Origin: Chiloscyllium plagiosum
Taxonomy: Eukaryota
DNA: 64,000 nucleotides
Direction of reading: 5' to 3'
Assembly (NCBI RefSeq): GCF_004010195.1
Contig: NC_057753.1
Location: 13,257,979 to 13,321,978, forward strand
Position numbers and translations under genes: made by a program. Below the pieces are notes generated by a model. That model saw nothing but the letters and a program-made list of their open reading frames with translations, searched no databases and had not been told where the DNA came from. Shown here piece by piece: positions 5,070 to 62,748 of the stretch. How positions within the stretch are numbered: position 1 is the first letter of the stretch; each line of letters starts with the position of its first letter.

Positions 5070-6180
5070 CTGGTTGAGATGCAGGTTGTAAGTTTGCTCG
5101 GTGAGCTTGTTTTCTGACATCTCGTCACCATGGTAGGTAACATAATCAGTGAGCCTTTGTTGAAGCGCTGGTGTTCTGTCCCGCTTTCTATTTGTGTGTC
5201 TTGGTCTCTTAAGGTGGGCGATTGCCATTTCCAGTTCTTTTTCTCAGAGGTTGGTAAATGGGGTCTAACTCGACATGTTTATTGATGGAGTTCTGGTTTG
5301 AATGCCAGGCCTCTAGGAATTCCCGTGCGTGTCTCTGTTTAGCCTGTCCTAGCTGGATATGTTGTCCCAGTTGAAGTGGTGTCCGTAAACGGAGCTGCAT
5401 CAAGACATTATTTAAATGGGCCACAACACACTGCAGCACCCCAGAACTATGAGCAGCGGAAGTAAAATACCCATGCAGCGTATTCAAGAAGGAGTACCCG
5501 ATAAACGGTCCGCTGATTCTTAAACAACAAACCCAAACAAGTAGACACAATATGTGCAGAAACCCTCGCCACACTACCATATATTAAAAACATTTCGGAG
5601 TTGACTACCAGATCACTCTGACCCCTTAGCATCATGGTAGCCCACAAATCTACCAACACACAAACAGCTACTGACGAACACAAAGGACCCTATACCAACA
5701 ACCAGCAAAATGAATGTCATTTACAAAGTACCTTGCAAGGACTGTAACAAACACTACATCGGACAGACAGGCAGAAAACTAGCCACCAGGATACACAAAC
5801 ACCAACGAGCCACCAAAAGACATGACCAACTATCACTAGTATCCTTACATACAGATGAAGATGACCACTATGACTGCGACAAATTATTCATCTGAGGACA
5901 GGCTAAACAGAGACACACACACACACACACACAATATCCTAGAAGACGGCATTCAAACTGGAACCTCATCAATAAACACACTGATTTGGACCCATTTACC
6001 AACCTCCTGAGGAAAAAAAGAACCGGAAATGATATCACCCACCATTAAGAGACCAAGTGACACGAATAGAATGGGGGACAGAACACCAGCGCTTCACCGG
6101 AGGCTCACTGATGTTATCTCGTGTGGTGATGAAACGTCTGAAGACAAACCTGTCAGCTCAGCAAGTAAACTTCCAACCTT
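5070..6180 (+). mobile_element. Penelope-like element: GIY-YIG 3' fragment with an inverted copy of its 3' end
   Basis: ORF 5710-5895 NVIYKVPCKDCNKHYIGQTGRKLATRIHKH is a GIY-YIG endonuclease signature. About 5070-5385 is an inverted copy of about 5870-6180. Confidence 0.85.
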
Positions 6181-6819
6181 TAATGACTTCTTTCCTATAG
6201 CAGGGAGAGCAGAACTGAATACAGTCTTCCAAAATAGGCCAAACCCATGTCTAATACAGCCACAACTGCTGTACTCCATGACTGACCAATAAAGGTCATT
6301 TCAAATGCCACCTTCACCACCCTGTCTACCTGCAACCCCACTTGCAAGAAACCTGTGCACTTGTTCTTAGCCCTTTGGAGGCATTGAAGGATATTGAGAA
6401 ATAACAGGATTGAGTTGGAGATGAATAAAATGTGTCTGCTTTGTACCTGCCTCTTCCACCTCGATCTCTTTGTAGTTTTGTGCAAACACTAACTGGTTCT
6501 CTTCCCTTAAGGATATGTATGGGCCAGTTCAGTTTTTATAATCCAGCAGCTTTCTTCACTGTCATTTCCACAACTGACCAGATCAATTGCTCTCTGTTTC
6601 ACAACCTGGGTGTTCTTCTGATTTCCCCTAATGCCTTTGTTTTATGTTTGAAAGGTTGACTCGCATTTCGAGACTTCAAATGAAAACACGTCCAGATCTA
6701 ACAGTCACTCCACTTCTCATAACCTAATTAGCACAGAATTTTCAGCATTAGAGGAAGAAGCAACATTCACGCAGGGGAGAAACAGTGCGTGTGGATGATT
6801 CAGTGAACAGTCATTTGAA

Positions 6820-8058
6820 ATGGCCAAACGCCAGCGCAGTCACACTGGGGAGAGACTGTGGAAATGTGGGGATTGTGGGAAGGGATTCCTTTGTCCATCC
6901 AAGCTTGAACTTCACCAACGCAGTCACACTGGGGAGAAGCCATTCACTTGCTCCGACTGTGGGAAGGGCTTCAGTCGGTCGTCACGCCTGCGGATCCACC
7001 AGCGGGTTCACACTGGAGAGAGACCTTTCATCTGCTCGATGTGCGGGAAACCATTCGCTGAGTCATCCAGCCTTCAGAAACACCAGCGAATTCACACTGG
7101 AGAGAGACCGTTCACCTGCTCGGATTGTGGGAAGGGATTTGCCCTGTCATCCAACCTGCGAATCCACCAGAGACGTCACACAGGGGACAGGCCGTTCACT
7201 TGCTCCACGTGTGAGATGGGATTCAGTCAGTTATCCAGCCTGCAGATACACCAGCGAGTTCACACTGGTGAGAGACCATTCACTTGCTCCCAGTGTGGGA
7301 AAGGATTCAGCCAGTCGTGCAACCTGCTGACACACCAGCGAGGGCACAGTGGGGAGAGGCCATTCACCTGTTCTGAATGTGGAAAAGGATTCATTCGCTC
7401 ATCTGAACTACTGAAACACCAGCGAATTCATACCGGAGAGAAACCATTCATATGCTCCGATTGTGGGAAGGGATTTACCCAGTCGTCTAACCTGCAGAGA
7501 CACCAGCGTGTTCACACTGGGGAGAGACCATTCACCTGCTTGGTGTGCGCGAAACCATTCGCTGACTCATCCACCCTTCTGAAGCACCAGCGAATTCACA
7601 CTGGAGAGAGACCGTTCACCTGCTCCGATTGTGGGAAGGGATTTACGCTGTCGTCCAACCTGCGGATCCACCAGCGAGTTCACACTGGGGAGAGACCGTT
7701 CACTTGCTCCATGTGTGGGATGGGATTCAGTCAGTTATCCAGCCTGAAGATACACCAGCGAGTTCACACTGGTGAGAGACCATTCACTTGCTCCCAGTGT
7801 GGGAAAGGATTCAGTCAGTCATGCAACCTGCTGACACACCAGCGAGGGCACAGTGGGGAGAGGCCATTCACCTGTTCTGAATGTGGAAAAGGATTCATTC
7901 GCTCATCTGAACTACTGGAACACCAGCGCATTCATACCGGAGAGAAACCATTCACGTGCTCAGATTGTGGGAAGGGATTTACCCAGTCGTCCCACCTGCG
8001 GAGACACCAGCGTGTTCACACGCGGGAGAAAGTGTCACTTGGTCAAGCTACCTGCTGA
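6820..8058 (+). CDS. C2H2 zinc-finger protein, 14 tandem fingers
   Basis: Intact ORF with 14 CX2CX12HX3H fingers and TGERPF linkers; no KRAB/SCAN/BTB domain visible in the ORF. Confidence 0.9.
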
Positions 8059-8438
8059 TACACCAGCCTATTCAAATCAATGGAGAGACGGTTCACTTCT
8101 GTATGAGAAATGATTAAGCTGTTAACACACCAGCGAAATGACACTAGGTAGATCTGTTCACCTGCTGTATTTGTGTAAAACAGTTTGCTATTTGCTTACA
8201 CCATGCAAATTCACAATGAACCACAGGTGTAGGGTTTTGATTTTACTCACACACTAAAATGAACATTGGGCCATTTGTATTGATGCTATTAATGAAAAGG
8301 GGCTGATATTGTAGATACAATTGTGTATCTGTCATAATTCTAAGATAGGTTTTGAAAATAATGGCAATGTCGCTTTACATCAACACACATGACGACTGTC
8401 TACCTGCATATTGCTTGTAAATTGTTTTTGAGGTTCAT

Positions 8439-9590: not shown

Positions 9591-9600
9591 GAGAACCTGA
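8930..9600 (+). mobile_element. Old CR1 endonuclease fragment
   Basis: Degenerate IAVTESWL, GDFSFPNIN and GDHFADS motifs of the CR1 APE domain. Confidence 0.65.
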
Positions 9601-15777: not shown

Positions 15778-16375
15778 CCAGCACCGAGGGAACTCACTGT
15801 TGTTTAACCAGTCATGATGAACCAGAAACTCACTTTACAAACATTATGCAGGTGGACAGTCTTCACCCAGTGTAACTGTCATGTATACAACATTGTTAAC
15901 ATTTTCAAAACCTATCCTACAGATACACAATGGTATCAGCATTTTATATACCATATCAGCACCTTTAACAAACAGCCCAAGGAATAAGGTTCATTCTGTG
16001 GTGTGAGTAATAGCAAAGTCCTTCACCTGTGGTTTCTTTGTGAATTTTCTGATGTGTTAGCAAATAGCAAGCCCTTTCACATGGGGGAAAGAGAGTATTC
16101 AGCTGCTCCATGTGAATCCCTTTCCACATATAGAGCAAGTGAATGGTCTCTCTCCAGTGTGAACTGGTTGGTCTGTCTGCAGACTGGATAACAGAGTGAA
16201 TTCCATCCCACAAGTGAATCCTTTTACACAGACAGAGCAAGTGAATGGGATCCACCCACTGCCAATTCACTGGTGTATTAACAGTATTGGATAACAGAGT
16301 GAATCCCTTTCTGCCTGCAAAATAAATGAACTCGTCTCTCTGTGGAGCAAACAGGCTGGTGTATCAGCAGGTGAA

Positions 16376-17602
16376 TTATCTGAGTGACTGTTTCTCCCCA
16401 GTGTGAACTTGCTCATGTCTCCGCAGGTTGGATGATTTGGTAAATCCCTTTCCACAATTGGAACAGATGAATGGCTTCTCTCCAGTATGAACTCGCTGGT
16501 GTTCCAGTAGTTCCGATGAACAAATGAATCCTTTTCCACATTCAGAACAGATGAATGGTCTCTTCCCAGTGTGAACCCGCTGGTGTTTCAGCAGGTTGGA
16601 GGACTGAGTAAATCGTTTCCCACACAGGGAGCAGGTAAATGGTCTCTCCCCAGTATGAACTCGCTGGTGTATCTGCAAGGTGGATGACTGAGTGAATCGC
16701 TTCCCACACCAGGAGCAGTTGAACGGTTTCTCTTCAGTGTGAACTCGCTGGTGTACCAGCAGGTGGGATGACTGAGTAAATCCTTTCCCACACACTGAGC
16801 AGCTGAATGCTCTCTCCCCCGTGTGAACCTGCTGATGTCTCAGCACGTGGGATGACCGAGTGAATCCCTTTCCACACACAGAGCAAATGAATGGTCTCTC
16901 TCCAGTGTGAACGAGCTGATGTATCTGCGGACTGGATGATGGAGCAAATTCCATCCCACAAGTGGAGCAGGTGAATAGTTTCTCTCTAGTATAAACTGTG
17001 TGGTTCTCTGGTAGATTAGATGAATGAGTGAATCCATTCCCACATTCAGAGCAGGTGAATAGTCTCTCTCTACTGTGAGCTCGTTGGTGTATCAGCAGTT
17101 TGGACGACTGAGCGAATGCTTTCCCACAATCTGAGCAAGCAAATGGTCTCTCTACAGAGTGAACATGTTGATGTTCTAGCAATATAGACGAGCGAGTGAA
17201 TGCTTTCCCACATTCAGAACAGGTGAATGGTCTCTCTCCAGTGCAAACGCGTTGGTGTTTCCGCAGGCTGGACGATGAAGCAAATCCCTTTCCACAATTG
17301 GAACAAGTGAACGGTTTCTCCCCAGTGTGACTGCGTTGGTGTATCCGCAGGCTGGATGACTGACTGAAACCCATCCCACAGTGGGAGCAAGTGAATGGTC
17401 TCTCCCCAGTGTGAACTCGCTGGTGGATCCGCAGGCTGGATGACTGACTGAATCCCATCCCACAATCAGAGCAGGTGAATGGCTTCTCCCCAGTGTGACT
17501 GCGTTGGTGCATTTCCAGCTGGGATGGGTAAAGAAATCCCTTCCCACAATCCCCACATTTCCACAGTCTCTCCCCAGTGTGACTGCGCTGGCGTTTGGAC
17601 AT
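16376..17602 (-). CDS. C2H2 zinc-finger protein, 14 finger units (unit 4 ends in Cys, unit 7 degenerate)
   Basis: First ATG at 17602 ([16 protein letters not shown], nearly identical to the start of the 6820 gene); decayed extra fingers continue at about 16040-16375. Confidence 0.9.
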
Positions 17603-18069
17603 TTCCGACGAACCTTCATTCACTCCTCCGCACACGGACAATGCGTGTTTCTCCTCGATGTGAATGGTAGTTTTTCTTTCACTGTTCAAAATCCTGAAAT
17701 AATTAGATTATGACAAACAGGGTGACTGTCAGATCTGGATGTGATTTCAGTTGAAATCTCTAATTGCAAATCAAAGTTTCAAACACAAAACAATTGCATT
17801 GGGAGAAATCAGAAAAACACACAGGCTGTGACACTGGGAGCAATTAATCTGGTCTGTTCTGGAGATGACACTGAGGGAAACTGTTGGATTATCATTATAA
17901 CCAAACTAGCTGATAACTCTCTTTCAGGGAAGGGAGCCAGCCAGTGTTTGCACAAAACTACACAAAGAGATAGAGGTGGGAGAGACAGGCATGAAACAGA
18001 GGCATTATAACAATCTACAACTGAATCCTGTTTTCTTTGCATACCTTTCAATTCCTCTGAAGGTCTAAG

Positions 18070-19160
18070 AACAAGTCCATTGTACCGAGACAGGAGTGCT
18101 GAAGAAGGCATTTGGCATGCTTGCCTATATTGGTCAGTGCATTAAATGCAGGGGTTGGGAGGTTATGTTGCAGCTGTGTAGATTATTGGTTATACCAGTT
18201 TTGGCAATCGTGGTCTCCCTGCTATAGGAAAGAAGTTGTTAAACTTGAAAGGGTTCAGGGGAAAAAAGGTCACATGGGTTGTTGATGTCATTGGAGAGTT
18301 TGAACTATCAGGAGAGACTGAACAGGCTAGGGCAACAAAAACAGAAGTTGCTGGAGCAGCTCAGCCAGCACCTGTGAAGAGAAATCAGGGTTAACATTTC
18401 AGGGCCGCTGACCCTTCCTCAGAACTAAATAGGTTGGGGCTTTGTTTCCTGGAGCATCAGAAGCTGAGGAATGACCTTATAGAAGATTATAAAATCATGA
18501 AGGACATGGCCAGGGTGAATAGCTTTTTCCCCGTGGGAGGGGGAGAAGAATCTAGAGCACGTGGGTTCAAGGTGAGAGGGGAAAGATTTAAACAAAAGGA
18601 CCTCAGAGCAAACCCTTTCACACAGAAGGTGGTGTGTGTATGAAAGAGGCTGTCAGAGGAGGTGGTGCAGACAGACACAATTACACACAAAAGGCATCTG
18701 GATGGGTACATGAACAGTAAGCTTTTATAGAGAAATGGGGCAAGTGGGACAAGATGGGCGGCACAGTGGCACAGTAGTTAGCACTGTTGCCTCACAGCGC
18801 CAGAGATCCGGGTTCAATTCCCGCCTCAGGCGACTGACTGTGTGGAGTTTGCACGTTTGCGTGGGTTTCCTCCGGGTGCTCCGGTTTCCTCCCACAGTCC
18901 AAAGATGTGCAGGGTCAGGTGAATTGGCCATACTAAATTGCCCGTAGTGTTAGGTAAGGGGTAAATGTAGGGGTATGGGTGGGTTCGCTTCGGCGGGTCG
19001 GTGTGGACTTGTTGGGCCGAACAGCCTGTTTCCACACTGTAATGTAATCTGTAAATCTGTAAAACTGTAATCTGTAAATCAGTTTGAGATATCTGGTTGG
19101 CATGGATGAGTTGGACCAAAATGTCCATTCCCATGCTGTACAGCTCTACGACTCTCTATT
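18070..19160 (+). mobile_element. CR1 3' portion with nested PLE mini-element (about 18334-18426) and HE1 SINE
   Basis: VVKLERVQ…LRNDLIEDYKIMK…SRARGFKVRGERFK; tail ccatgctgtacagctctacgactctatt. Confidence 0.8.
18755..19080 (+). mobile_element. HE1-like SINE
   Basis: tRNA head with A/B boxes, core, CR1-like tail and (gtaatct)n end. Confidence 0.9.
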
Positions 19161-20652: not shown

Positions 20653-20787
20653 TGATTCCTGATGAAGGGCTCCTGCCTGAAACATTGATTTTCCTGCTCC
20701 TCAGATGCTGCCCGACCTGCTGTGCTTTTCCAGCACCACTCTAATCTTGACTCTGATCTCCAGCATCCGCAGTCCTCACTTTTGCCT
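20653..20787 (+). mobile_element. 135-bp PLE-derived mini-element with a hammerhead motif and 16-bp TSD
   Basis: Direct repeat aagttctggaacgttc at 20637-20652 and 20788-20803; CTGATGA at 20659-20665 and GAAA at 20679-20682. Confidence 0.85.
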
Positions 20788-22474: not shown

Positions 22475-22679
22475 GTGTGGAGTGTGGTGCTAGAAAAGCA
22501 CAACAGGTCATGCAGCATCTGTGGAGCGGGAGAATCAACGTTTTCAGTGTAAGCCCTTAATCAGGAAGGGCTTATGCCTGAAATGTCGATTCTCCTGCTC
22601 CTCAGATGCTGCCTGAGCTGCTGTGCTTTTCCAGCACCACACTCTCGACTCAGATCTCCAGCAGTCCTTACTTTTTCCT
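22475..22679. mobile_element. Inverted (fold-back) pair of PLE terminal sequences with degenerate hammerhead motifs
   Basis: About 22478-22560 is the reverse complement of about 22565-22645. Confidence 0.8.
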
Positions 22680-22704
22680 AGTAATCTCCTCAAGCCTCAG
22701 AACT

Positions 22705-23570: not shown

Positions 23571-23668
23571 AAACACAGAAATTGCTGGAAAAGCTCAGCA
23601 GGTCTGGTATTATCTATGGAGAGAAATCAGAGTAAACATTTCAGGTTAAGTTACCCTTCTTCAGGACT
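23570..23668 (-). mobile_element. PLE terminal fragment with a decayed hammerhead motif
   Basis: Same family as 18334-18426 and 26370-26600. Confidence 0.65.
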
Positions 23669-25600: not shown

Positions 25601-25929
25601 AGTCATGAGCAGCTCGGACTGAAATTCACAACAGAAATTTCTAGTTTCAATGGAATATTCATTCATCTCTTGTTCCCCAAAACAAGCGATTCAGGCAAAC
25701 TAAAAGTCAAATTCAGCAACCAAGTTGCCAAGGTAAGCTAAGGGAACCTTTCCAATAAATCAGAATGTAGCCCCTGTATTAATGGAACACTCTGTACGCT
25801 AAGATACGCAGCAGTTGTGGTTGGCACCAATGTACCAGTGATATTGTGTTCTCCCCTACCAGGACTGCCTAGGCATAGGGAACATCACAAAGAATCCACA
25901 GTCATACGTGGATTCATTCACAGTCATTG

Positions 25930-26364: not shown

Positions 26365-26595
26365 ATAAAAACTGAAAGAACTGTGGAAGCTGTAAATCAG
26401 AAACAAAAGAAAACGAAGTTGTTGGTAAAGCTCAGTAGGTCTGGCAGCGTCTGTGCAGAGAAATCAGAGTTAATGTTTCGGCTCTGGCGACCCTTGCTCA
26501 GTTGAGGAAGGGTCACCGGACCCGAATCGTTAACTCTGACCTCTCTGCACAACTGCTGCCAGACCCTGCTGAGCTTTTCCAGCAACTTCTGTTTG
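26365..26595. mobile_element. Fold-back PLE terminal pair with hammerhead motifs at the centre
   Basis: Inverted arms meet at about 26500; the plus arm reads tTGAGGA-A-GGGTC-accg-GACCC-GAAt-CGTT-AAC. Confidence 0.8.
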
Positions 26596-26819
26596 CTTTC
26601 GTATTCGTCTGAGCCCCACAAATCACAGCACAAGCACATCCAAGTGGATTTGAAATACCCAGCCGCCCCCTCCTTCTGATGACACCCCTTCCCGATAAAC
26701 TGGCACAATGTGAAGCTACAGTGTCACTGAACGTTGAGGATCCGCCCTTTCAAGTAACTCTGCAATCCTCCTGCCTCTCCCGCTACTCAGCAGCATCGCC
26801 TGGGAGCGGCTGAAGATGC

Positions 26820-28073: not shown

Positions 28074-28109
28074 ATTCCTGATGAAGGGCTTTTGCCCGAA
28101 ACGTCAAAT
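28074..28109 (+). ncRNA. Minimal type I hammerhead ribozyme motif within a PLE fragment (about 28040-28170)
   Basis: attc-CTGATGA-A-GGGC-TTTT-GCCC-GAAA-CGTC-aaat; the core is intact and stem I has a mismatch. Confidence 0.7.
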
Positions 28110-28309: not shown

Positions 28310-28440
28310 ATGATTCTGAGAAAATGTCACTCGACCCAAAATGTTAGCTCTGATTTCTCTCCCCCAGATGCTGCCAGTCCTGCTGAGCTTCTCCAGTAAC
28401 GTTTTGCTTTTGTTCCTGATTTCCAGCATCTTCAGTTTTT
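28310..28440 (+). mobile_element. PLE terminal fragment with a decayed hammerhead motif
   Basis: ttCTGAGAAaatgtcactcgacccAAAAtgttag followed by the family 3' tail. Confidence 0.6.
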
Positions 28441-32249: not shown

Positions 32250-33930
32250 GGTATTCCTGGATGTTAATAACAGCAGAATTGAAGCCCTGTAGACATTTAT
32301 GACTTTCCTGATATGTTAGCTGATTAAATTACTGAGTAAATCCATTCCCACACAGGTGAATGGTTTCTGTCCAATGTAAATACTTTGCCTGCAGTGAGGA
32401 TGGAAGACTGAGTGAATGCTTTTCCACACAAAGTCCTCCAAGGGGGATACACAACAATGCAGAGTGGCCAAGCAGAGGCTGATAGCCAAGTTCGGTACCC
32501 ATGAGGACGGCCTCAACCAGGACCTTGGGTTAATGTCACACAATAGGTGGCCCCACTACATTGTACACACACACACACATGTACACAGTCTTACATTCTC
32601 ACACAATCAGACAGACCGTCTCCCATACACACAGTCCGCACTCACACCCACGCCCACATCCTCTCTCAGGCATATACTCCATCACACTCAGGCACAAACT
32701 CTATCAAGCACACACACACATAGTTACACACTCTCACTGTGTCCGCGCGCACACATATAAGTCTAAGGGGTGAATTTGCATTTGCAGAATTCTGTTTGCA
32801 GATACGTTCTATTTTGTTCAAAAAGCACACAATCTGTAGGCAGTCAATACATGTGACATTTATAAATTCCTACTTTGGAAATAGAACCAGTCTGACTCAA
32901 GATTGGAATACAGACAGACTAACTTCACAACTTTAATGCATTCTCGGAGCTAGATGTCACTTTTTAAAAATAAACGCTGAAGTAGTCTCAAGAATGCAAC
33001 TTGAAAGATCATATTAATGTTTACATATTAATGAATTGAAACTTGCAACCCATTCTAAATGATGAAAGACTTAATAACAATCTAGTTTTAAATCAACTAG
33101 GCGAAAGTGAGGACTGCAGATGCTGGAGATCAGAGTCTAGATCAGAGTGGGCCTGAAAAAGCACAGCAGATCAGGCAGCATCCGATGAGCAGGAAAATCC
33201 TGAGCTGGCAATTTGGAACTGGGGTAAGGTGGGGGGAGGGGAAATGAGGAAACAGGTGAAGTCCATATTGATGCTCTGGGGTTGAAGTGTTCCGAGGCGG
33301 AAGATGAGGCGTTCTTCCTCCAGATGTCGGCTGGTGAGGGAGTGGCCGGGAGGAGGCCCAGGACTGCATGTCCTCAGCAGAGGGGGAGGGGGGGTTGAAA
33401 TGTTGATTGGTGCGGGTATCCCAGAGATGTTCCCTAAAGCTTCTATTTCTAAATAAACCTGGTGGACTAAAACCTGGTGTTATAAGATTTTTAACTTTTC
33501 CACACAAAGTGCAGGTGAATGGTCTATCCCTTGTGTGATGTCGCTGATGTCTCAGCACGGTGGATGAACTGCTGAATCTCTTCCCACATTTGGAGCACAT
33601 GAGTGGCCTCTCCCCAGTGTGAACTGACCGATGTATTGCAAGGGCAGGTGACTTTGTGAACCCCTGAGCTGGATTCACCCTGAGGTGGATCGTTTCTCCT
33701 GAGTGTAACTGTATTGATGGATTTCCAGTTCAGATATGCAATTGATTTCTTCATCGCAGTCCTCACATTTGCATGGTTTCTCTCCTGTGTGGCTGTGTTG
33801 ATAGATTTCTGACAGTGATGGATAATTAAATCCTTTACCACAAGCCCCACAATAGGCATAATTTCTGCAAGTTACAGGTGACCTTGTATCTCTCTAGGTT
33901 GAACAATCAATTAAAGTTTCTACCACATAT
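32250..33930 (-). pseudogene. C2H2 ZNF pseudogene split by a PLE insertion
   Basis: Fingers at 33495-33860 ([33 protein letters not shown]) resume at 32250-32434. Confidence 0.85.
32435..33494 (+). mobile_element. Penelope-like insertion with 16-bp TSD, containing a second PLE fragment (-, about 33100-33440)
   Basis: cttttccacacaaagt at 32419-32434 and 33495-33510; begins with the PLE C-terminal peptide QRLIAKFGTHEDGLNQD. Confidence 0.85.
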
Positions 33931-35528: not shown

Positions 35529-35655
35529 TCATGATTTGGAGATGCCAGTGTTGGACTGGGATGTAGAAAGTTAAAAATCGCACAACACCAGGTTATAGTC
35601 CAACAGGTTTAATTGGAAGCACTAGCTTTCGGAGCGACGCTCCTTCATCAGGCGG
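35529..35655 (-). mobile_element. 127-bp PLE-derived mini-element with an intact hammerhead motif and 9-bp TSD
   Basis: ttgaaggag at 35520-35528 and 35656-35664; same family as the 3' end of the 32435-33494 PLE. Confidence 0.8.
35620..35654 (-). ncRNA. Minimal type I hammerhead ribozyme motif
   Basis: Reverse complement: CGC-CTGATGA-A-GGAGC-GTC-GCTCC-GAAA-GCTA-GTG. Stems I and II pair, and helix III is the palindrome AGCT. Confidence 0.75.
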
Positions 35656-43249: not shown

Positions 43250-44750
43250 TTAGAACATGGAACAGAGTACATTACAGCACAGTACAGGCCCTTCAGTCCT
43301 CGATGTTGTGCTGACTTGTGGAACCAATCTGAAGCTGATCCAGCCTACACACTATTCCATTCTCGTCCATATGCCTATCCAATGACCATTTAAATGCCCT
43401 TAAATTTGGCGAGTCTAATACTGTTGCAGGCAGTGCGTTTCACGTCCCTACTACTCTGAGTAAAAAAATTACCTCTGATATCTGTCCTAAAATTTACCAC
43501 CCCTTAATTTAAAGCTATGTCCCCTCGTACTAGCCATTGCCATCTGAAGAAAAAGGCTGTCACTGTCCAACCTATAAAACCCTCTAATTATCTTATATGT
43601 CTCAATTAAGTCACCTCTCAACCTTCTTCGCTCTAACGAAAACAGCCTCAAGTCCCTCAGCCTTTCCATGCAAGACCTCCCCTCCATACCAGGTGACATC
43701 CTAGTAAATCTCCTCTGAACCCTTTCCAACGCTTCCATATCCTTCCTATAATGTGGTGACCAGAACTGTATGCAAAACACAAAATGTGGCCACTCCAGAG
43801 TTTTGTACAGCTGCAGCATGATCTCATGTTTACAAAATGCAATCCCTCTACCAACAAAAGCTAACACATTGTATGCCTTCTTAACAACCCTATCAATCTG
43901 AGTGGCAACTTTCAAAGATCTATGTACATGGATTCCAAGGCCTCTCTGCTGTCTACACTATCAAGAACCTTACCATTAGCCCAGTACTCTGCACTCCTAT
44001 TACTCCTTCCAAAGTGAATCAACTCACACGTTTCCACATTAACCTCCATTTGCCACCTCTCAGCCCAGCTCTGCAGCTTATCTCTGTTTCTCTGTAACCT
44101 ACAACATCCTTCATCACTATCCACAACTCCACTGACCTTAGCGTCATCTGCAAATTTCCTAACCCATCCTTGTATGCCCTCATCCAGGTAATTTATAAAA
44201 AATGATAAACAGCAGTGGACCCAACACAGATCCTTGCGGTACCCCATTAGTAACTGAATCAAGATGAATATTTCCCATCAACCACCATCCTCTGTCTTCG
44301 TTCACCTAGTCAATGTCTGATCCAAACTGGTAAATCACTCTGAGTCCCATGCCTCCGTATTTTGTGCAATAGCTTATCATGGGTAACCTTATCAAATGCC
44401 TGACTGAAATCAATATACACCACATCAACTGTTTACCCTCATCCATCTGATTGGTCACCTTCTCAAAATACTCAATAAGGTTTGTGAGGCACAACGTGCC
44501 CTTCACAAAACCGTGCTGACTATCCCTAATCAACTTATTCCTTTCTAAATTATTATAAATCTTATCTCTGATAACCCTTTCCAATACTTTACCCACAATC
44601 GAAGTAAGGCTCACAGGTCTATAATTTCCAGGGTTGTCTCTACTCCCCTTCTTGAACAAAGGAACATCATTTGCTATCCTCAAGTCTTCTGGCACTATTC
44701 CTGTAGACAATGATGACATAAAGATCAAAGCCAAAGGCTCTGCCATCTCC
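43250..44750 (-). mobile_element. CR1 RT and 3' end, tail-to-tail with the preceding copy
   Basis: PGNYRPVSLTSIVGK, KFADDAKV and STRGHSFKLRG on the minus strand. Confidence 0.9.
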
Positions 44751-44754
44751 TGGC

Positions 44755-48357: not shown

Positions 48358-49506
48358 TCAGTCCTGGATATGACTAGCAGCATCGGCAAGTGCAGAATCC
48401 AAACTTTGCATTTGCTTGTGAACTCGCCGGTGTGTCAGCAGATGGGATGACTGAATGAATCCCTTCCCACAGACATTACAGGTGAATGGCCTCTCCCCAG
48501 TGTGAACTCGCTGGTGTTTCACCAGGTAGGATGAATGAGAAAATTCCTTCCCACATTCAGAGCAGGCGAACGGCCTCTCCCCAGTGTGAATCCTCTGGTG
48601 TGTCTGCAGGTTGGATGACTGAGTGAATCCCTTCCCACAAGTTGGACAAGTGAAGGGCCTCTCTCCAGAGTGAACTCGCTGGTGATTCATCAGGTTGGAG
48701 GATCGAGTGAATCCCTTCCCACACACAGGACAGGTGAAAGGCTTCTCCTTTGTGTGAACCTGCTGATGTGTCAGAAGATTACATGAACGGGTGAATCCCT
48801 TTCCACATTCAGAGCAGGTGAAAGGTCTATCTCCTGTGTGAAGTTGCTGGTGTATCAGAAGGTTGGATGAATTAATGAATCCCTTCCCACACACAGAGCA
48901 GGTGAATGGTCTCTCCCCTGTGTGAATCCGCTGGTGATACAGTAGGCCAGATGGACGAGCGAATCCCTTCCCACACACAGAGCAGGTGAATGGCCTCTCC
49001 CCTGTGTGAGTATACTGGTGTGTCAGCAGATCCTTTTTGCTTTTAAAGCTCTTCTCGCAATCAGAACAATTAAAAAGTTTGTTATCAGAGTGAGCAAGTT
49101 GATGTGTCTGAAGGTGGGATGACTGAGTGAATGCCATCCCACAGATAGAGCAGGTGAATGGCCTCTCCCCAGTGTGGATACGTTGATGTGTCATTAGATC
49201 CTTTCTGCATTTAAAACTCTTCTCACAGTTTGGGCATTTAAATGGTCTCTTATCAGTGTGGACAAGTTGGTGAGTCACAATGTGGGATGATCGAGCAAAT
49301 CCTTTACCACACACAGGGCAGGTGAACGGCCTTTCCTCAGTGTGAACTCGCCGGTGTGTCAGAAGGTTGTAGGAATGGGTGAACCCCTTCCCACAGACAG
49401 AGCAGGCGAATGGCCTCTCCCCAGTGTGACTGCGCCGATGAACCTCCAGTTGAGATGGGTAATTGAACCCTTTTCCACAGTCGCCACATTTCCATGGTTT
49501 CTCCAT
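48358..49506 (-). CDS. C2H2 zinc-finger protein, 13 fingers plus an 18-aa C-terminal tail
   Basis: First ATG at 49506 ([10 protein letters not shown]); intact ORF; likely acceptor tttttAG at 49828-49827 and donor GTAAGT at 50093-50088. Confidence 0.9.
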
Positions 49507-50119
49507 GGCGCAGTGTCCTTGTGTCTCTCCACTTTGGATGATCAGTTGAAGCCTCGCACCTAAGTTTACAATTTGTCTCTGCTGCAAATGTGTGACATTT
49601 TTCTCAGGATGTGTAATAGAACACTCTCACTCAGATCTGTTTGTGTGTCTGGTTGCTTTTCCACTCAGACTGACGTCTGACATCTTCTCCCTTGAGGCAG
49701 GACAGAAACTGTTGCTCTTACTACAGCCAGAGGCTGATGACATTCAGGTTTGAATGAATCGAGTGATTCTGTGAGATGGGGCGCTTGGTTTGAATTTGCA
49801 GTCTGCAATCTTCTTTAAAATGCCGCCTAAAAAGGAGATGACAAAAGCCCTCAGAACAGAAAATCCAGACAGACAGTTGCAGTTTCGCTGGAACGTGTCC
49901 TGCTCCCGAAAACGCGATCTAATTCAACCAAAATAAGTCCAAAATGACTAGCGAGGCATGAAGAGGTACAAAGGAAATCTCCTTAACAAAGCCAGAATGC
50001 TATTCCCAATGTCTGTGAGACACTCTCCATCCAAGCTCCCCAGTAATAGTGGAACCAGTCATTTGGAACCTCTCATCGCGTGTTCCCACTTACGAGCATT
50101 TGGACCCAGTTGCAATCAG

Positions 50120-50719: not shown

Positions 50720-51476
50720 GTTAGAACGCCGCCCACCCCACTCCTGGCACCTTTCGGTGCCATTGTAGGAAGTGCAAAACCTGCGTCCACACCACTCCCC
50801 TCACCTCCGTCCAAGGCTCCAAGGGATCCTTCCACATCCGTCAGAAATTTACCTGTACTTCTACTGATGTCGTCATCTGCATCCGTTTTATCCGACGTGG
50901 TCCCCTCTACTTTAGAGGAGACAGGATGCCTTCTTGCGGATCGTTTCAGAGAACATCTGATATACCCACACCCACCAACCGCACCACCCTGTGGCTGAAC
51001 ACTTCAACTCCCCCTCCCACTCCGTCAAGGGCATGCAGGTCCTGGGACGCCTCCATTGGCAAACTGTTACCACCTGACGTCTGGAGGAAGAAAGCCTCAT
51101 TCCCCCTTGGGATCCTGCAACCACACAGAATAAATGTGGATTTCGACAGCTTCCTCATTTCCTCTCCCCCCACATTCTCCCAATCCTAAGCCTCCAACTC
51201 TGCACTGCCCTCCTGACTGGTCCATCACAACCCCCTCTGACCTATCATCTTCTCCCTTACCTTCATCCACCTCTCACTTTTTCAGCTACCTTTACCCCAA
51301 CCACACCCCCTCCCTTTTATGTCTCAGACCCCAGCCCACAAGCCTCCTTCCTGATGAAGGGCTTATGCCCAAAACGTCGATTCTCCTGCTCCTTGGATGC
51401 TGCCTGACCTGCTGTGCTTTCACAGCAACAAACTCTCGACTCTGATGTCCAGCAACTACAGTCCTCACTTTCTCCC
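50720..51476 (+). mobile_element. Penelope-like element 3' part (GIY-YIG remnant plus terminal hammerhead motif)
   Basis: Decayed KGSFHIRQKFTCTSTDVVICI…ETGCLLADRFREH; CTGATGA-A-GGGC-TTAT-GCCC-aAAA-CGTC from 51351. Confidence 0.85.
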
Positions 51477-52519: not shown

Positions 52520-53142
52520 CTACAAAATATATTCAGGCCAGTCCCACTCCCTATCCAATCCCTATAACACTGCATTTTCTATGGCTACTCCATCTAGCCT
52601 GCACACTATGGGCAATTTAGCATGACCAGTCCACTGAACCTGTACACCTTTGGAATGTGGGAGGAAACCGGAGCACCTGGAGGAAACCTACATAGACCCG
52701 AGGAGAATGTGCAGACTCCACACAGACAGCAGCCTGAGGATGGAATTGAACCCTGGTCCCTGGTGCTGTGAGGCAGCAGTGCTAACCACCGAGCCACCCC
52801 CAAATAGGATCGTTGTCAGCCTGTCAGCACCAGGGCGGCACGGTGGCTCAGTGGTTAGCACTGCTGCCTCACAGCACCAGGGTCCTGGGTTTGATTCCCG
52901 TCTGTCTATGTGGAGTTAGCACATTCTCCCTGTGTCTGCGTGGGGTTGCTCCGGTTTCCTCCCACAATCCAAAGATGTGCAGGTCAGGTGAATTGGCCAT
53001 GCTAAATTACCCGTAGTGTCAGATGAATTAGTCAGAGGGAAATGGGTCTGGGTGGGTTACTCTTCGGGTGGGGGGGATGCGCATTGTGGAGTTGTTGGGC
53101 CGAAGGGCCTGTTTCCACACTGTAGAGAATCTAATCTAATCT
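52520..53142. mobile_element. Head-to-head pair of HE1-like SINEs (52520-52800 minus, 52832-53142 plus)
   Basis: Two tRNA heads on opposite strands, about 30 bp apart. Confidence 0.85.
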
Positions 53143-54283
53143 CAGAAGAAAACACATTGATATCATATCACTCACAAACATAGCAAAGCACTTCACTGGA
53201 CAGTCTGGGGGAGGGATTGTATTACAGGAACAAAACTCCACTCTGCAACTTATCTTTATCTAACTAATACAAAATATTCTAAACTTTTGACACATTTGTC
53301 AAATCTACCCTCAACCTCAGTATCTCCAACCGAACGTTGCAATTAAAATTTCTCTTCCTTCTGATCGAGTTGTGAATTTACATTCTGCTCTGATTTTGGA
53401 AAATCCTTTCACAGGGCAAATTCCAACCTAGAGAAATGTCAGTCGCTGAATTTTAATTTAGACAGACACTGATGGTTTTCGTAATCTCGTTTTACAGAGA
53501 CATGAAGACTTTTGACAATCGGACTTTTTCTCTTTGCACAATTCTTGTACTGTTTTTCCAGCTACAACATCCAACAGGAGAATTAAAATTTGAAAACAAA
53601 GAAATTGTTTCAGAAATGAGTATTGTTGAACATCCATCTAGAATTTACAGCTTTTTGTGCTATGCTGTTGTTTCATCTCTCTGGGTCTGCTGTGAGACTT
53701 TTAGAGTGGTTCTGAATCCATGTCCTTTGCTTTGTTTCACCCCCATTGACCCAACTTGCTCTTAGTAGAACATAGAACAGTGCAGCACAGTACAGGCCCT
53801 TCGGTCCTTGATCTTGTGCCGATCTTTTACCCTACTCTAAGATCAGACTAGCTGGCATACCTTTCATTTTACTATCTTCCATATGCCTATCCAAGAGTCA
53901 CTTAAATGTCACTAATGTATCTGACACTACTACCACTGCTGGCAGTGCATTCCATGCACCCACCACTCTCTGTGTAAAGAACCTACCTCTGCCATCTCCA
54001 CTAAACCTTCCTCCAATCCCCTTAAAATTATGCCCCCTCATGATAGACATTTCCACCGTGGGAAAAAGTCACTGGCAATTCACTCTATCTATGCCTCTCA
54101 TCATCTTGTTCACCTCTGTCAAGTGACCTCTCATCCTTCTTCGCTCCAATGATAAAAGCCCGAGATCCCTCAATCTTTCTTCAGAAGACGCCCTCCAGTC
54201 CAGGAAACATCCTGGTAAATCTCTTCTGCACCCCCTCTAACACTTCCACGTCTTTCCTATAATGAGGCAACCAGAACTTAACA

Positions 54284-54372
54284 GGCCTGAAGAAGGGCCT
54301 GTGCCCGAAACGTCGAATCTCCTGTTCCCTGGATGCTGCCTGACCTGCTGTGCTGTTCCAGCAATAAAGTTT
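54284..54372 (+). mobile_element. 89-bp hammerhead mini-element with a 16-bp flanking direct repeat
   Basis: caaccagaacttaaca at 54268-54283 and 54373-54388; CTGAAGA-A-GGGC-CTGT-GCCC-GAAA-CGTC from 54287. Confidence 0.9.
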
Positions 54373-54690: not shown

Positions 54691-54988
54691 CCTGTCAATC
54701 TACTATTGCAACCTACCAACAGCCCTGCAACTCATCTACTATTGCAACCTACCAACAGCCCTGCAACTCCTCCAACCTTTGTGTCATTGGCAAACTTACT
54801 AACCCACCCTTCCACTGCCTCATCCAAGTCATTTAGTAAAGCACAAACAGCAGAGCTCCTGTCAATCTACTATTGCAACCTACCAACAGCCCTGCAACTC
54901 CACCAACCTTTGTGTCATTGGCAAACTTACTAACCCACCCTTCCACTGCCTCATCCAAGTCATTTAGTAAAGCACAAACAGCAGAGCT
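54691..54988. repeat. Nested tandem duplications (131 bp twice, with an extra 36-bp duplication in copy 1)
   Basis: 54691-54857 versus 54858-54988. Confidence 0.9.
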
Positions 54989-56650: not shown

Positions 56651-58160
56651 TCCCGTATGGCCGACTGGATTTATCTGTCCTTCTATCTTTCGAAATTTTC
56701 AACATATCTTCCTTCTTAATATCAATCTGTTCTAGCATATCAGTCTGTTTCACGCTGTCCTCAGAAATGCCAAGGTCCCTCTCAGTAGTGAATACTGAAG
56801 CAAAGTATTCCTTAAGGACGTCCCTGACTTCCTCTGACTCCAGGTTCAAGTTCTGTCCAGTATTCCTGATCAGCCCTACCCTCACTATAGCCATCCTTTT
56901 GTTCCTCATATGAATGTAGAATGCCTTAGGGCTTTTCTTAACCCTGCGCGGTAAAGCTTTTTCATGCCCCCTTCTAGCTCTCAAGTCCATTGTTCAGTTC
57001 TTTCCTGGCTACCTCATAATCCGCTAAAGCCCATCTGATTCATGTCTCTTCAACCTTAATTAAGCTTCCTTCCACCTCTTGACTTAATCCACATCCCTTG
57101 TCACCCAAGATTTTTTCAAACTACCATCCCTTCCATGCCTCAGTGGGACAAACCTGTGCTATCAGCAAGTGCTTCCTGAATAACCTCACATTTCCCTCAG
57201 AACATCTGTTCCCAATTTAGGCGCCCCAGTTCCTGTCTAATAGCATTGTAATTCCCCCTCCTCCAATTAAATACTTTCCCGTATCATCTTCTCCTGTCCC
57301 TCTCCGTGAGTACAGTAAAGGTCATGGGGTCGTGATCACTATTACTGAAATGCTTTCTCACCGAGAGATCTGACACCTGGCGTGGCTCGTTGCCAAGTGT
57401 CAAATCCAATATGGCCTCCCCTCTCATCAGTCCATCTACATATTGAGTCAGGGACCCTTCCTGGACACACCTGACAAAAACTGCTCCATCCAGACTATTT
57501 GATCTAATAAGGTTACAACCAACATTAGAGAAGTTAAAGTCACCCATGACAACAATCCTGTTACTTTTGCACCTTTCCAAAATCTGCCTCCCAATCTGTT
57601 CCTCCGCATCTCTGTTGCTATTGGGAGATTATGGGTGGCACAGTGGTTAGCACTGCTGCCTCACAACGCCTGAGACCCGGGTTCAATTCCCGCCTCAGGC
57701 GACTGACTGTGTGGAGTTTGCACGTTCTCCCCGTGTCTGCGTGGGTTTACTCCGGGTGCTCCGGTTTCCTCCCACAGTCCAAAGATGTGCAGGGTCAGGT
57801 GAATTGGCCATGCTAAATTGCCCGTAGTGTTAGGTAAGGGGTAAATGTAGGGGTACGGGTGGGTTGCGCTTCGGCAGGTCGGTGTGGACTTGTTGGGCTG
57901 AAGGGCCTGGTTCCACACTGTGATGTAATGTAATCTAATCTGTAGAAAACTCCCAATAAAGTGACTGCTCCTTTCCTGTTTCTGACTTCCACCCATACTG
58001 ACTCTGCAGACAAACCCTCCGCGAAGCCCTGCCTTTCTGCAGCTGTGATACTATCCCTGATTAGCAATGCCACTCCCACACCTCTTTCACCTCCCCCTCC
58101 CTACTCCTTTTGAAACATCTAAATCCTGGAACATCCAGCAACCATTCCTGCCCCTGTGAT
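56650..58160 (-). mobile_element. CR1 ORF2 endonuclease/linker portion
   Basis: IVVMGDFNF, NSDHD, GVALLIRDS and LGVFYR on the minus strand. Confidence 0.85.
57630..57940 (+). mobile_element. HE1-like SINE inserted in a CR1
   Basis: Full head, core and taatct tail. Confidence 0.9.
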
Positions 58161-60580
58161 GTCCATAGCAACAGAGACACAGAGGAGCAGATTGGGAGGT
58201 AGATTTACGAAAGCTGCAGAAGTAATAGGTTTGTTATTGTGGTTGACTTTAACTTCCTTTAATAGTGGTGCATTTTAAATCTGTTTGGTATTTTCATATT
58301 ATCTTTACCAATTGTGTCTAAATGAGGCTTCCATTGCTTCTCGTCTGCAGACTACGTGCTGCTGATTCACCAGCTTTATCTTCCCATGGTCAACAATTTT
58401 ATTTCCTGAATGTGTGATCATTTCTCTTCAACTTCTGAGCTAATATGAACTGTCATATTCTGTACTATTTTTGTTCACCATATTTATTCTACACTTTCTC
58501 AAATGTTAACTCTGTGTTGCCTTCACTACAAATACTGCCTGACCTGCTGAGTTTTCCAGCCTATGATTGGTTGTTTTATCTTAGCTGTCTAATATCTGCG
58601 GTATTTCTCTCATTTTTTCCAGCATTTGTTCAGAGAATCGAGTCCAGAAACATCGATAGACTAATTAAGAGCTGGTTTCCAGTATGACAGTATTGGTTCT
58701 GGAGGCTTACTTCCTGTCTCCAGTTTACATCCTTTCTCACGGAATCACGGAATGATCACCGAACAGAAGGAGGCCATTTTATACATCGTAAGAGCAACTC
58801 AGTGAGTTTCACTTCCCTTCGTTTTATTGTTTCCACTGGATCAGGTAATTGGAAATGAGAAGTGCCAACTGCCCTTTGAGTATTTAAGGGTTGGTAATTA
58901 TTGTGTCAAAAAGGTTCGGATGACAATTATGAAAATGTTCCTGCACAATCCAGAGTACAAATAATTAACACAGGAAAGCCAACTTTGTCCTCTTTGTCGA
59001 ATGATCAATAGTAACAGGGTGTAATTTCAATGTGAAGGCTTTGAGGGGGTTTCCGGGGAAAGTACTTCACCCAGAGGACGGCGCGGGTCTCTAATGCACT
59101 TCAGGTGCTCATCCACTTCTCTTGTGAAGGCATTTGTTGAATTAGTTTGAGGTGGAATGAAGATGGAGACGTTGCTCAGTTTAGCCCTCAGGCTATTGGA
59201 AACCAGTCAGGTCCAGGAAATTCTGATCTCTAATTGTCAAAGGATGGTAGGGGAGATCAAGTTGTAAAATGGGAACTTTGCATTCAATCTAATCAGATGC
59301 TATTGTTAGGAACAAACTTTTCTGAAGATGCTTTTAATCTATTTTTATACGCATAATCATATATAAAACTGTACAGATACTTTTAAAAAGAGTTTTTGGG
59401 ATTTGAACATCACTATCAAGAACAGCAGATTATTTTGTCATCACTAATTACTTGTGGAAGAGTTGGTGCATGACCTGAAATGCTGCAGTCCATGTGGTAA
59501 TGAGAAGACATTTTGATTAAATGGTCTCTTTCAGGGAGTATTTTGAAGATCAGTGTGACTTAGAGAAGTTTGAGGAGGAATTTCCAGAGCCTGGGCCCTT
59601 GGAAGCTCAATGAATGGCTCAGTGGTGTAGAATAATTTAAAATCTGGAAAATTCAAGAACTTCGAATTAGACAAACACAGATATTTCTGAGTGTTATGCA
59701 GCCAGAAGAGGTTAGAGAGTCAGGGGCAATGGCAGCAGGGAAGTGATTTTAAAAACAATGCTGAGATTTTTTTAAAAAGGTTTTGGTGCTTTGCAGGCAG
59801 AGAGCAGGGTGGTGATGGGTGAAAGAAGGTTGGTGTGAGTAAGGACATGAACAACAGACTGAGGATAACCTTGAGATTACAGGGAAGATGGATGTGGTAG
59901 GCCGGTCCAGATTGTGTTAGAACGTTTAAGGCTATGAGCAACGAATGACAGTTTCAGAGCTGTCGACACCAGGGTGGAGTTAGGTGATGTCATTGAGCTG
60001 GAAATAGATAATATTGGTGATGAAGGTTTGAGGTCACTCTCCTGGCCTGTCTTATTGCCATCTTATTGATCTTATTGCCATCATTCTCACTCTTGTCCCC
60101 CACTCTCACTCTTACTGTTGCCCCATGACGCTACCTCCCTCACTCTCAATTTTCCTACCTTATCAGTGCTCCCCGACCTTCAAGCTGCCCTGCTTCGTGG
60201 CCTCTGTTATCCCTCACTCTCCCTCTGTGTTCTCTGTTCTCCCATGCGGTCAGAGATTTGTTATCCAGACTGCACGGCAGGTTCCAGTCCCTGGAGGAGA
60301 TGAGTGACCTGTTGGGTTTGATGAAATTCTGGCAGCTTTCATTGTTACTTGTTACCTCATGAACACCCCATAAATTACCAGATTTATTCAGCTCAGTTTC
60401 TCAACTGCCCTTTGATTTTGTGTTCTTTTTGTTGCAATTCAATTGTTTCTGTTTTCATTCAAATTTCACAAGACTAATCAAAGGGAGGATTCACAGTCAG
60501 AAAATTCAAGCCAAATATCCTATCACGATCTGACGGAGCTATCCAATTTATTATCACCTAAATACCATCAGATTTTGAGT

Positions 60581-62014
60581 ATGGAAGGAGAAAGCACCGT
60601 TCACCCAGGGGAGAAACTGTGCACGTGTTGTGTGTGTGGACAAGACTTCAGTCAACCATCTGACTTCACAAACCACAAATGCAGTCACACTGGGAAGAAA
60701 CCATGGAAGTGTGGGGATTGTGATAAAGGGTTCAGGTCCCCGTCGGAGCTGGAAATTCACCAATACAGTCACACGGGGGAGAGGCCATTCACCTGCTCCA
60801 AGTGTGGGAAGGGATTCACACAGTCATCAACCCTGATGTCTCACCATCGTGTTCACACTGAGGAGAGACCTTTTAAATGTCCAGACTGTGGCAAGTGCTT
60901 TAAAAGTTCAAGCAATCTGATGTCCCACCAACGTGTTCACACTGACGAGAGACCTTTTAAATGCCCAGACTGCGAGAAGTGTTATAAAAGTTCCAGGGAA
61001 CTGCTGTCCCATCAACATACTCACACTGACGAGAGACCGTTTAAATGCCCAGACTGTGGGAAGAGCTATAAAAGCTTTGGGGAACAGATGCTCCATCAGC
61101 GTGTTCACACTGGAGAGAGACCTTTCAAATGTCCAGACTGTGGGAAGGGATATAGAAGTTCCAGCAATCTAATGTCCCATCGACGTGTTCATACTGACGA
61201 GAGACCTTTCAAATGCCCAGACTGTGGGAAGGGATATAAAGGTTCCAGTGAACTGATATCCCATCGGCGTGTTCACTCTGATGAGAGACCTTTTAAATGC
61301 ACAAACTGTGGGAAGTGCTTTAAAAGTTCTGGGGCACTCATGAACCATCAACGTGTTCACACCGACAACAGACCTTTTAAATGTCCAGAATGTGGAAACT
61401 GCTTTAAACGTTCAGGGGAACTAATACGCCATCAACGTATTCACACTGAGGAGAGACCTTTTAAGTGCCCAGACTGTGGAAAGTGCTATAAAAGTTCAGG
61501 GGAACTAATATCTCACCAACGAGTTCACACTGATGAAAGACCTTTCAAATGTTCAAACTGTGGGAAATGTTATAAAAGTTCAGGGGATCTGATGTCCCAC
61601 CAACGTGTTCACACTGATGAGAAACCTTTTAAATGCTCAGCCTGTGGGAAGTGCTTTAAAAGTTCCAGTAAACTGATTTCACATCAACGCATTCACACTG
61701 ACGAGAAACCTTTCAGATGTTCCCAATGTGAGAGTAGGTTCAAGTCATCATCCGAGCTCACTGTCCACCAGCGAACCCACACTGGGGAGAGACCGTTCTC
61801 CTGCACAGAGTGTGGGAGGAAGTTCACCCAGTCATTCAACCTGCTGACACACCAGAGAGTTCACACTGGAGAAAGGCCTTTCAGCTGCTCCAAGTGTGGG
61901 AAGAGATTCACTCAGTCATCCATTTTATTGAGACACCAGCGCGTTCACAGTGGAGAGAGCAGACCTTTTAAATACAAGACTGTGGGAAGTGCAATAAAAG
62001 TTCTGAAGCACTAA
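60581..62014 (+). CDS. C2H2 zinc-finger protein, 16 fingers
   Basis: ATG at 60581 ([12 protein letters not shown]); candidate acceptor AG at 60471-60472; a frameshift after finger 16 leaves about 3 decayed fingers to about 62200; AATAAA near 62319. Confidence 0.9.
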
Positions 62015-62453
62015 TGTCCCAGCAAAGTGTTCACATTGCCAAGAGACCATTCAAGTGCTCTCATTGTGTGATTGAGTTTGGGAAATCCTCTTAACTCGTA
62101 CACCAGCTTATTCACGCCCTGGAGAAACCTGTTCACTTGCTGTGAGTGTGGGAAGGTATTCAGTCAAATCTTTCACCTGCTGAGGCACCAGTGAGTTCAG
62201 CAGCGACCTTGGGATTGGACTTTGCTGTTAATCACATCCAGGGCTGAACCATGTTGATTGATATCTTTTTCTGCTGATGTCAGTACATTCCACTTCAATT
62301 TTTGCTGTCAGAATTCTGAATAAAAGTCACATTAATCAGCTTTTCATTAAACAGTTCTGAGGCTTTTCAATATCTATAACACCAGTACAGTTCACACTTG
62401 AAAGAAATTTTTAAACGTCTGGGTCTCTTACAAAGGCTTCAGAGTAAATAAGA

Positions 62454-62748
62454 CTTAGTGGATTTTGAGGGGATTTGTATCTCAGGTTGAGGTTCTGGAT
62501 GTAAATTTGCTTGCTGAGCTGGAAGGTTTGTTGTCAGACATTTTGTCACCATACTGGGTAACATTATCAGTGAGCCTCCGGTGAAGCACTAGTGGTATGG
62601 CCTGTTTTTTTTTTGTGTGTTTAGGTTTCCTTAGGTCAAGAAAACCCAATGAAACCTGAACACACACAAAAAGCGGGCTGATGTTAGCTAGTATGGTGAC
62701 GAAATGTCTGAAAACAAACCTTCCAGCTCAGTGAGCAAACTTACATCC
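62454..62748. mobile_element. Fold-back PLE terminal pair (family of 5070-6180) with 11-bp TSD
   Basis: agtaaataaga at 62443-62453 and 62749-62759; two inverted decayed hammerhead motifs. Confidence 0.8.

Follow-up and report, generated by a model that had tools for sequence, protein, structure and literature searches.

A 64,000-nucleotide stretch of the Chiloscyllium plagiosum genome (contig NC_057753.1, positions 13,257,979 to 13,321,978; hereafter the window) carries dispersed copies of a small RNA motif in four families, A to D, and these motifs are almost certainly the minimal hammerheads carried by Penelope-like elements (PLEs). A first-pass annotation of the window had proposed such an origin, and we find it upheld: the motifs correspond to minimal type I hammerheads of four PLE families, with covariation between families. 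We consider it highly likely that they lie in pseudo-long terminal repeats (pLTRs) and persist as decayed passengers of truncated insertions, with RNA cutting likely confined to active parent elements.

The four family patterns recur exactly in the 3.56-Gb genome. The family A pattern, CTGA(T/A)GA-A-GGGC-n4-GCCC-GAAA-CGTC, captures a subset of that family and is found in 19,637 copies; the family B pattern, gtt-CTGAGGA-A-GGGTC-n4-GACCC-GAAA-CGTT-aac, in 659; the family C pattern, cgc-CTGATGA-A-GGAGC-gtc-GCTCC-GAAA-GCTA-gtg, in 16,625; and the family D pattern, tca-CTGAT(GA)-T-GTTACC-n6-GGTGAC-GAAA-CGTC-tga, in 281, with another 652 when N7 is A. The reversed patterns, which served as controls, gave 0 copies in every case. 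A pattern specifying an intact core and leaving the stems free matched 165,774 times genome-wide, compared to 166 for its control. A strict descriptor that demands core, palindrome, NUH triplet and at least 4 bp of helix II gave 41 hits in 764,087 random genomic bases, compared to 0 when reversed and 0–1 in each of 10 shuffles. We also made family profiles from natural copies and used them on the window and on 1,245,939 random genomic bases. Density is 0.36 per kb in the window (23 hits in 64 kb) and 0.32 per kb in the random blocks (399 hits in 1.246 Mb), which makes the window unexceptional; extrapolation from the 399 hits puts the number of remnants in the genome at roughly one million. Local enrichment in the zinc-finger cluster of the window was rejected, the two densities being close. 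With hits that do not span the motif left out, the core is intact in 56/150 sampled copies of A, 6/47 of B, 18/60 of C and 9/43 of D (27 of the D rows are protein-anchored loci).

All motif positions listed in the first-pass annotation were confirmed in the window sequence, and the strict descriptor matches there three times, compared to 0 matches in 97 and 1 match in 3 of 100 shuffles. The earlier estimate of roughly 15 motifs is too high as a count of ribozymes: 16 copies hold most of the motif, but only three of these (28078+, 54287+ and 35651−) combine an intact core, a palindrome and an NUH triplet. Only the copy at 35651− (35620–35654) is complete including helix I; 28078+ is missing the first pair of helix I, and in 54287+ that helix has no 5′ strand. 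There are no intact B or D copies in the window. Most window copies are dead relics. Among the 23 profile hits are several that had been overlooked: seven remnants that consist of the tail only, and a family A copy at 22564− that pairs in inverted orientation with 22560+. An Rfam scan of the window returned 9 matches at E ≤ 10; none reached the gathering score, and no hammerhead family was among the nine.

The first-pass annotation had also stated that stems I and II differ between families yet remain paired, and both the modal pairs and a test over 22 recurring motif types bear this out. In the order A, B, C, D, the first pair of helix I is C-G, U-A, C-G and A-U, the second U-A, U-A, A-U and C-G, and the third U.U, G-C, C-G and U-A; within family D, the third pair is U-A (19) or C-G (14). 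Across the 22 types, a set that holds pattern-selected loci and copies related to each other, 56 of 66 helix-I cells pair, compared to 30.9 upon shuffling, and 0 of 2,000 shuffles reached this value. Helix II measures 4, 5, 5 and 6 bp in A, B, C and D, and a bulged base after A9 and a modal G10.1-C11.1 closing pair are seen in all four families. Helix III, described as always palindromic, is palindromic in each family consensus (ACGU in A, B and D; AGCU in C), but many copies read ATGT or ACAT, owing to CpG decay of the palindrome. In family A, the CpG is retained at G12 in 89/146 copies, in the palindrome in 84/146 and at the cut site in 93/148.

Which positions vary is informative about selection. 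In the core and palindrome, 1 of 52 columns has a non-CpG minor allele at ≥12%, compared to 14 of the 25 free columns (N7, N17 and loop II; p 7e-8) and 27 of 140 tail columns (p 0.001). In stem II, 9/40 columns vary, for the most part by transitions in family B, which is old. N17 is G in 0/295 copies, and in family C it is split between A (36) and U (21). Mismatch rates in core versus tail are 3.5 vs 4.5% for A, 6.7 vs 7.2% for B and 4.2 vs 6.1% for C, none of these differences being significant, and selection on single genomic copies was rejected since the rates are alike. Given that single copies decay neutrally while variation between lineages avoids the core, it follows that constraint acted on the parent elements. 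RNA cutting in active parents is probable.

Each family's motif was found 3′ of a Penelope-like GIY-YIG remnant, on the coding strand. For this linkage test, the genome was searched with the GIY-YIG peptides of the window and the downstream sequence was inspected for the motif. In family D, 20/20 protein-anchored loci have the motif downstream of the GIY-YIG end and on its strand; the motif is also downstream in 9/10 loci of family A, and after the endonuclease in 4/6 loci of family C. For family B, most copies of which are short, an endonuclease lies upstream in 2/30 motif-anchored loci. In the window, the remnants at 5641–6039 and 5224–5352 are the two arms of one inverted family D insertion. 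Open reading frames (ORFs) of family D match RVT_1 (E 8e-7) and GIY-YIG (E 2e-4), both below the Pfam cut-off, and the endonuclease stretches of A and D align at E 2e-6. Subfamily A1 has its ORF start 164 nt past the core in 5/30 loci, which places the motif within the pLTR. No intact full-length element was present among the recovered loci, whose long frames are interrupted by assembly gaps.

By their predicted proteins, the families can be assigned to clades. A C-x4-C-x2-C linker precedes GIY-YIG in A (locus L265) and C (L105), and both are classed as Neptune-type, a clade defined by a C-x2-5-C-x2-C linker before GIY-YIG (PMC8557442). Family B is probably Neptune-type too; its linker is decayed in L208, and its tail is common with A. 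The family D ORFs (L294, L295) have a C-terminal GIY-YIG without the Cys linker, and D is classed as Poseidon-type. The Penelope/Poseidon clade name for D is taken from sequence motifs.

Several unusual arrangements were seen among these loci. L307, L314 and L330 are A1 elements with internal deletions, each carrying two motifs in direct orientation at spacings of 365, 740 and 401 nt; in L307, the two are intact or nearly so. These elements are possible retrozyme precursors. In L324, at least six ∼30-nt repeats derived from the region of the family A ORF start form an array just ahead of an ORF start. L269:7336–8005 is a head-to-head pair of another D-like subfamily (helix I GCA/UGC, helix II GUCACC/GGGGAC, N17 = U).

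The 5′ ends of copies cluster at the motif. In family A, 76 of 174 copies end 25–36 nt upstream of the predicted cut, which is the motif front. For ends within 30 nt of the core, the median distance is 3 nt in B (63/68 copies), 4 in A (117/173), 6 in C (58/103) and 13 in D (22/87), and D differs from A, B and C each at p<2e-4. This set required the whole motif, used curated upstream references and includes pattern-selected loci; the C and D samples are small, family B is old with few references, and unsampled subfamilies can imitate ends. Three window insertions with target-site duplications begin 6, 4 and 3 nt before the core. Long copies contain a TATA-like word, at −35 to −32 in B (4 references), at −40 or −38 in C (30/37), mostly at −50 to −45 in D and, weakly, at −39 in A (12/44). 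Family B has a TCAGTT word, which we take to be an initiator, with its A ∼30 nt past the TATA. The position 30 nt past TATA tracks the end cluster in B, C and D; for A, it falls ∼5 nt upstream of the peak. Because the ends track the TATA offset whereas the helix-I edge is constant across families, a transcription start is favored over a structural stop. We lean towards a start by RNA polymerase II (Pol II) 4–20 nt before the core. In some copies, an additional G precedes the putative +1 (A, 13 G vs 9 A, p 0.06; C, 4/5, p 0.017; B, 0/4; D, 1/2), which as a copied trace of the cap is suggestive only, the test being post hoc.

In the mechanism we propose, the parent would be transcribed by Pol II from just before the 5′ motif, and reverse transcription from the nearby tail would run off at the RNA 5′ end, so that the short copies would be run-off cDNAs of uncleaved RNA. 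The 5′ and 3′ motifs would pair via the palindrome, probably with an element protein, and cut both, trimming the transcript to unit length. Dimer-type cleavage with low activity has been described for such motifs (PMC4209133; Lunse et al. via review PMC6765202), as have protein-assisted cleavage, the copying of unprocessed RNA, and reverse transcription that starts internally in the tail (PMC11167929). The idea that the copies are fossils of cleaved templates was rejected, as copies starting at +1 number 1/138 in A, 1/48 in C, 1/53 in B and 0/13 in D. Three of 174 A copies end at or past the cut, and none of 30 ORF-start loci begins at +1 (read by eye, with some masked by gaps).

A number of observations weigh against one part or another of this reading. 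Pfam gave no hit for the ORFs of A, B and C or for the GIY-YIG remnants of the window, and hence the PLE label of these three families rests partly on sequence motifs in the ORFs. Most pairs show no covariation within families. Helix I is weak in family A, the most abundant, most copies having C-G, U-A, U.U and A-U (the third position is U.U in 95/127 and U-A in 14/127) and thus only 2 bp ahead of the U.U mismatch. In silico, helix II forms, and the monomer and half-dimer hammerheads are not the lowest-energy structures, the program used being unable to model the double hammerhead. In RNA run X21 (one poly(A) single-cell sample, ∼2% of reads used, not established as from the same species as the window DNA), read ends did not accumulate at the cut site of A or C, although a poly(A) library makes this a weak test; the family A stretch drew 2,983 reads, in both directions. 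A second run, X22, gave 0 reads. The rarity of A copies that start at +1 points the same way. Activity of the motif class is reported to be low or protein-dependent (PMC4209133, PMC11167929, bioRxiv 10.64898/2026.07.22.740005), 8/9 frog dimers were not cleaved and 1/9 was (Li 2026), and the ribozyme is not needed for insertion in vitro (PMC11167929). Finally, among nearest neighbors of one family, head-to-head placement greatly outnumbers direct (in A, 47 versus 2 within 150 nt), and the scarcity of direct neighbors counts against dimers, since head-to-head pairs cannot dimerize on one strand.

For family C, the X21 reads reveal a polyadenylation site directly behind the motif. Of 3,099 reads of the family C stretch, 1,497 are polyadenylated 27–30 nt past the predicted cut, entering the T run at 35593 (+30; 835 reads) or 35596 (+27; 662 reads), with the tail on the ribozyme strand. 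The genome at these positions is not A-rich. AATAAA (28) or ATTAAA (20) occurs at +10 to +15 in 48/60 family C copies, followed by a GU-rich stretch. The reads include several subfamily variants and hence come from many loci. They continue across the cut site and reach 24 nt or more upstream of the core, and so represent uncleaved RNAs begun upstream. Neither hexamer follows the cut in the B and D copies examined. An A subfamily with loop CUGU and a helix I of 4 bp contains AATAAA at +49 relative to the cut, in 14/150 sampled A copies and at 54362–54367+ in the window.

The copy ends and the family C reads together suggest a cassette of promoter, ribozyme and poly(A) site, similar to a long terminal repeat (LTR). 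A fuller version of this idea, which we put forward tentatively and hold to be less likely than otherwise, is that the pLTR would be LTR-like throughout, with a TATA box and start, an R region that holds the hammerhead, then poly(A) signal and site, and priming in the tail. Each end of a parent transcript would then bear one motif, and the paired motifs would remove cap and poly(A), turning mRNA into a template that is unit-length or circular; the short copies, in their hundreds of thousands, would be integrated ‘strong-stop’ cDNAs of capped uncleaved RNA, and family C would have seeded working poly(A) sites. We found no paper on the promoter–motif–poly(A) layout, in a search that had Lunse et al., Repbase and subscription journals outside its reach.

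Head-to-head insertions invite another explanation, in which parents retain the motif as a non-cutting RNA-pairing or protein-loading signal at the RNA 5′ end that joins two templates. Such an arrangement, known for PLEs (PMC8557442, PMC3846280), is common here: 87 pairs less than 200 nt apart hold 174/422 copies (∼40%), and their arms mostly stop at the motif front (in A, 45/75 end 25–36 nt before the cut). The templates of copies are uncleaved, as this explanation would have it, and the protein of Anolis, predicted to form a dimer, cuts both strands and extends them (PMC11167929). However, the catalytic positions and the avoidance of G at N17 are kept in four families, beyond the need of a pairing signal; the Anolis motif cleaves with protein (PMC11167929); and Naiad elements, which are without the motif, are also typically head-to-head (PMC8557442). 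We regard a non-cutting signal as unlikely.

Less probable still is that the short copies form an independent non-autonomous family, an animal retrozyme or SINE-like element (SINE, short interspersed nuclear element), replicating via circular RNA. Retrozymes have been derived from pLTRs (Li 2026), copies of 90–135 nt with target-site duplications are very numerous, and the partial tandems L307, L314 and L330, with two motifs 365–740 nt apart, could be read in this way. Yet the copies are dispersed with one motif each, there is no array of tandem motif units in the window and direct neighbors are rare; short copies grade into ORF-bearing copies and decay neutrally; and a circle made by cleavage does not account for ends upstream of the core. 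That the host recruited the motifs to regulate the zinc-finger genes of the window is the least credible explanation: the motifs are interspersed with five or more C2H2 zinc-finger ORFs, and family C copies provide poly(A) sites that are in use at some place in the transcriptome, but motif density is no more than ordinary (0.36/kb versus 0.32/kb in random blocks) and the core is broken in 13/16 window copies.

Hammerheads carried by parent PLEs remain our preferred reading. The class of minimal PLE hammerheads was described in 2014 by Cervera and De la Pena (PMC4209133), and the metazoan examples share with ours a type I core, a bulged base between 9 and 10.1, G10.1-C11.1 and a palindromic 15.2-16.2, as well as the occurrence of several families per genome, mostly as solo copies of truncated elements; they are known in fish Poseidon and Neptune. 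Differences lie in helix II, here 4–6 bp, in the very short helix I of family A, and in copy number, 165,774 intact cores here versus, by another descriptor, ∼4,000 for coelacanth and ∼9,000 for Xenopus (PMC4209133). Cartilaginous fish are not named in the text or the two supplements of that paper that were examined, and we found no paper on shark or elasmobranch Penelope/Neptune hammerheads, subscription journals and Repbase being outside the search. The Anolis Poseidon element PAc likewise carries a pLTR motif immediately ahead of the ‘tail’, is copied mainly from unprocessed RNA and shows no RNA ends at the cut (PMC11167929); its ORF starts inside the motif, whereas the A1 ORF starts 164 nt after the core, and 5′-end clustering, a TATA offset and a poly(A) site at the motif are not described in the parts of that report examined. 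In the Penelope elements of D. virilis (PMC2377424) and A. vaga (PMC3846280), transcription also starts in the pLTR, and head-to-head inverted pLTRs are common. TATA and Inr-like words were noted for A. vaga (PMC3846280), while the D. virilis element has an internal TATA-less promoter and an intron before the motif (PMC2377424), in contrast to the likely start at the motif and upstream TATA-like box here. Non-LTR retrozymes (PMC7229834; Li 2026) also have type I hammerheads in PLE-related non-coding repeats, including in one sampled cartilaginous fish, but form tandem arrays of mostly canonical motifs, unlike the dispersed single or inverted copies of minimal motifs seen here.

Table 1. Motif copies, insertions and endonuclease remnants in the window (window coordinates; remnants are classed as in the text)
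Feature	Position	Strand	Remarks
Family D motif	5113..5152	−	Damaged core; left arm of head-to-head pair with 6108+
Poseidon-type GIY-YIG C-terminal remnant	5224..5352	−	Upstream of 5149− motif; 88% to L294 protein
Poseidon-type GIY-YIG remnant	5641..6039	+	Upstream of 6108+ motif; E 7e-45
Family D motif	6105..6141	+	Core region lacks 3 nt
Family B motif	18390..18425	−	Short copy; palindrome decayed to ATGT
Family A short insertion	20653..20787	+	135 nt; 16-bp target-site duplication; starts 6 nt before core at 20659; palindrome ACAT
Family A copy	22483..22567	−	Damaged core; minus arm of short head-to-head pair
Family A copy	22563..22682	+	5′ core part lost at inversion junction
Family B motif	23632..23668	−	Decayed
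Family B copy	26398..26502	−	Damaged core; minus arm of short head-to-head pair
Family B copy	26502..26596	+	Damaged core; plus arm of same pair as 26398..26502
Family A motif	28075..28108	+	Core and palindrome intact; first helix-I pair broken
Family B motif	28313..28348	+	Heavily decayed
Family C GIY-YIG C-terminal remnant	32446..32547	+	Followed by decayed family C tail at 33433-33509
Family C short insertion	35529..35655	−	127 nt; 9-bp target-site duplication; starts 4 nt before core
Sole complete motif	35620..35654	−	Within 35529..35655 insertion; predicted cut after 35623
Poly(A) signal ATTAAA	35608..35613	−	+10..+15 from predicted cut; family reads tailed at sites matching 35596 and 35593
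Neptune-type Cys linker and GIY-YIG remnant	50758..51102	+	Upstream of 51351 motif
Family A motif	51348..51381	+	G12 lost
Family A short insertion	54284..54372	+	89 nt; 16-bp target-site duplication; starts 3 nt before intact core at 54287; helix-I 5′ strand absent
Family D head-to-head pair	62454..62748	.	Motifs 62570− and 62678+ both damaged; within 11-bp target-site duplication

The window itself is a cluster of C2H2 zinc-finger ORFs interspersed with remnants of long interspersed nuclear elements (LINEs). Long zinc-finger ORFs lie at 6799–8055+, 16379–17707−, 29458–30735+, 48361–49626− and 60416–62011+, with fragments near 33145–33729− and 37147–37587+; 6356–8180 and 16222–18079 are inverted zinc-finger paralogs of 77% identity. 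A LINE at 39099–42690+ encodes a GDSL esterase-like ORF1, AP endonuclease and reverse transcriptase (RT) and is followed by an inverted 83% copy of its RT portion at 43262–44751−. An abundant SINE-like repeat of ∼300 nt occurs at 3742–3845, 18754–19064, 25926–26237, 52603–53153 and 57628–57950; the inverted pair at 52603–53153 yields weak Rfam hits to miRNA precursors, probably a hairpin artefact. At 54734–54988, within a LINE remnant, there is a recent 131-nt tandem duplication, 99% identical.

The class of motif is known, and the window adds one more genome, in which copy number is very high. What role the hammerhead plays for Penelope elements has been called unclear (PMC8557442). The remnants described here record where template RNAs began and show that templates were copied uncut, which bears on that role. 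The poly(A) site behind the family C motif offers a concrete layout for the element RNA, and family C copies with a used poly(A) site may terminate host transcripts.

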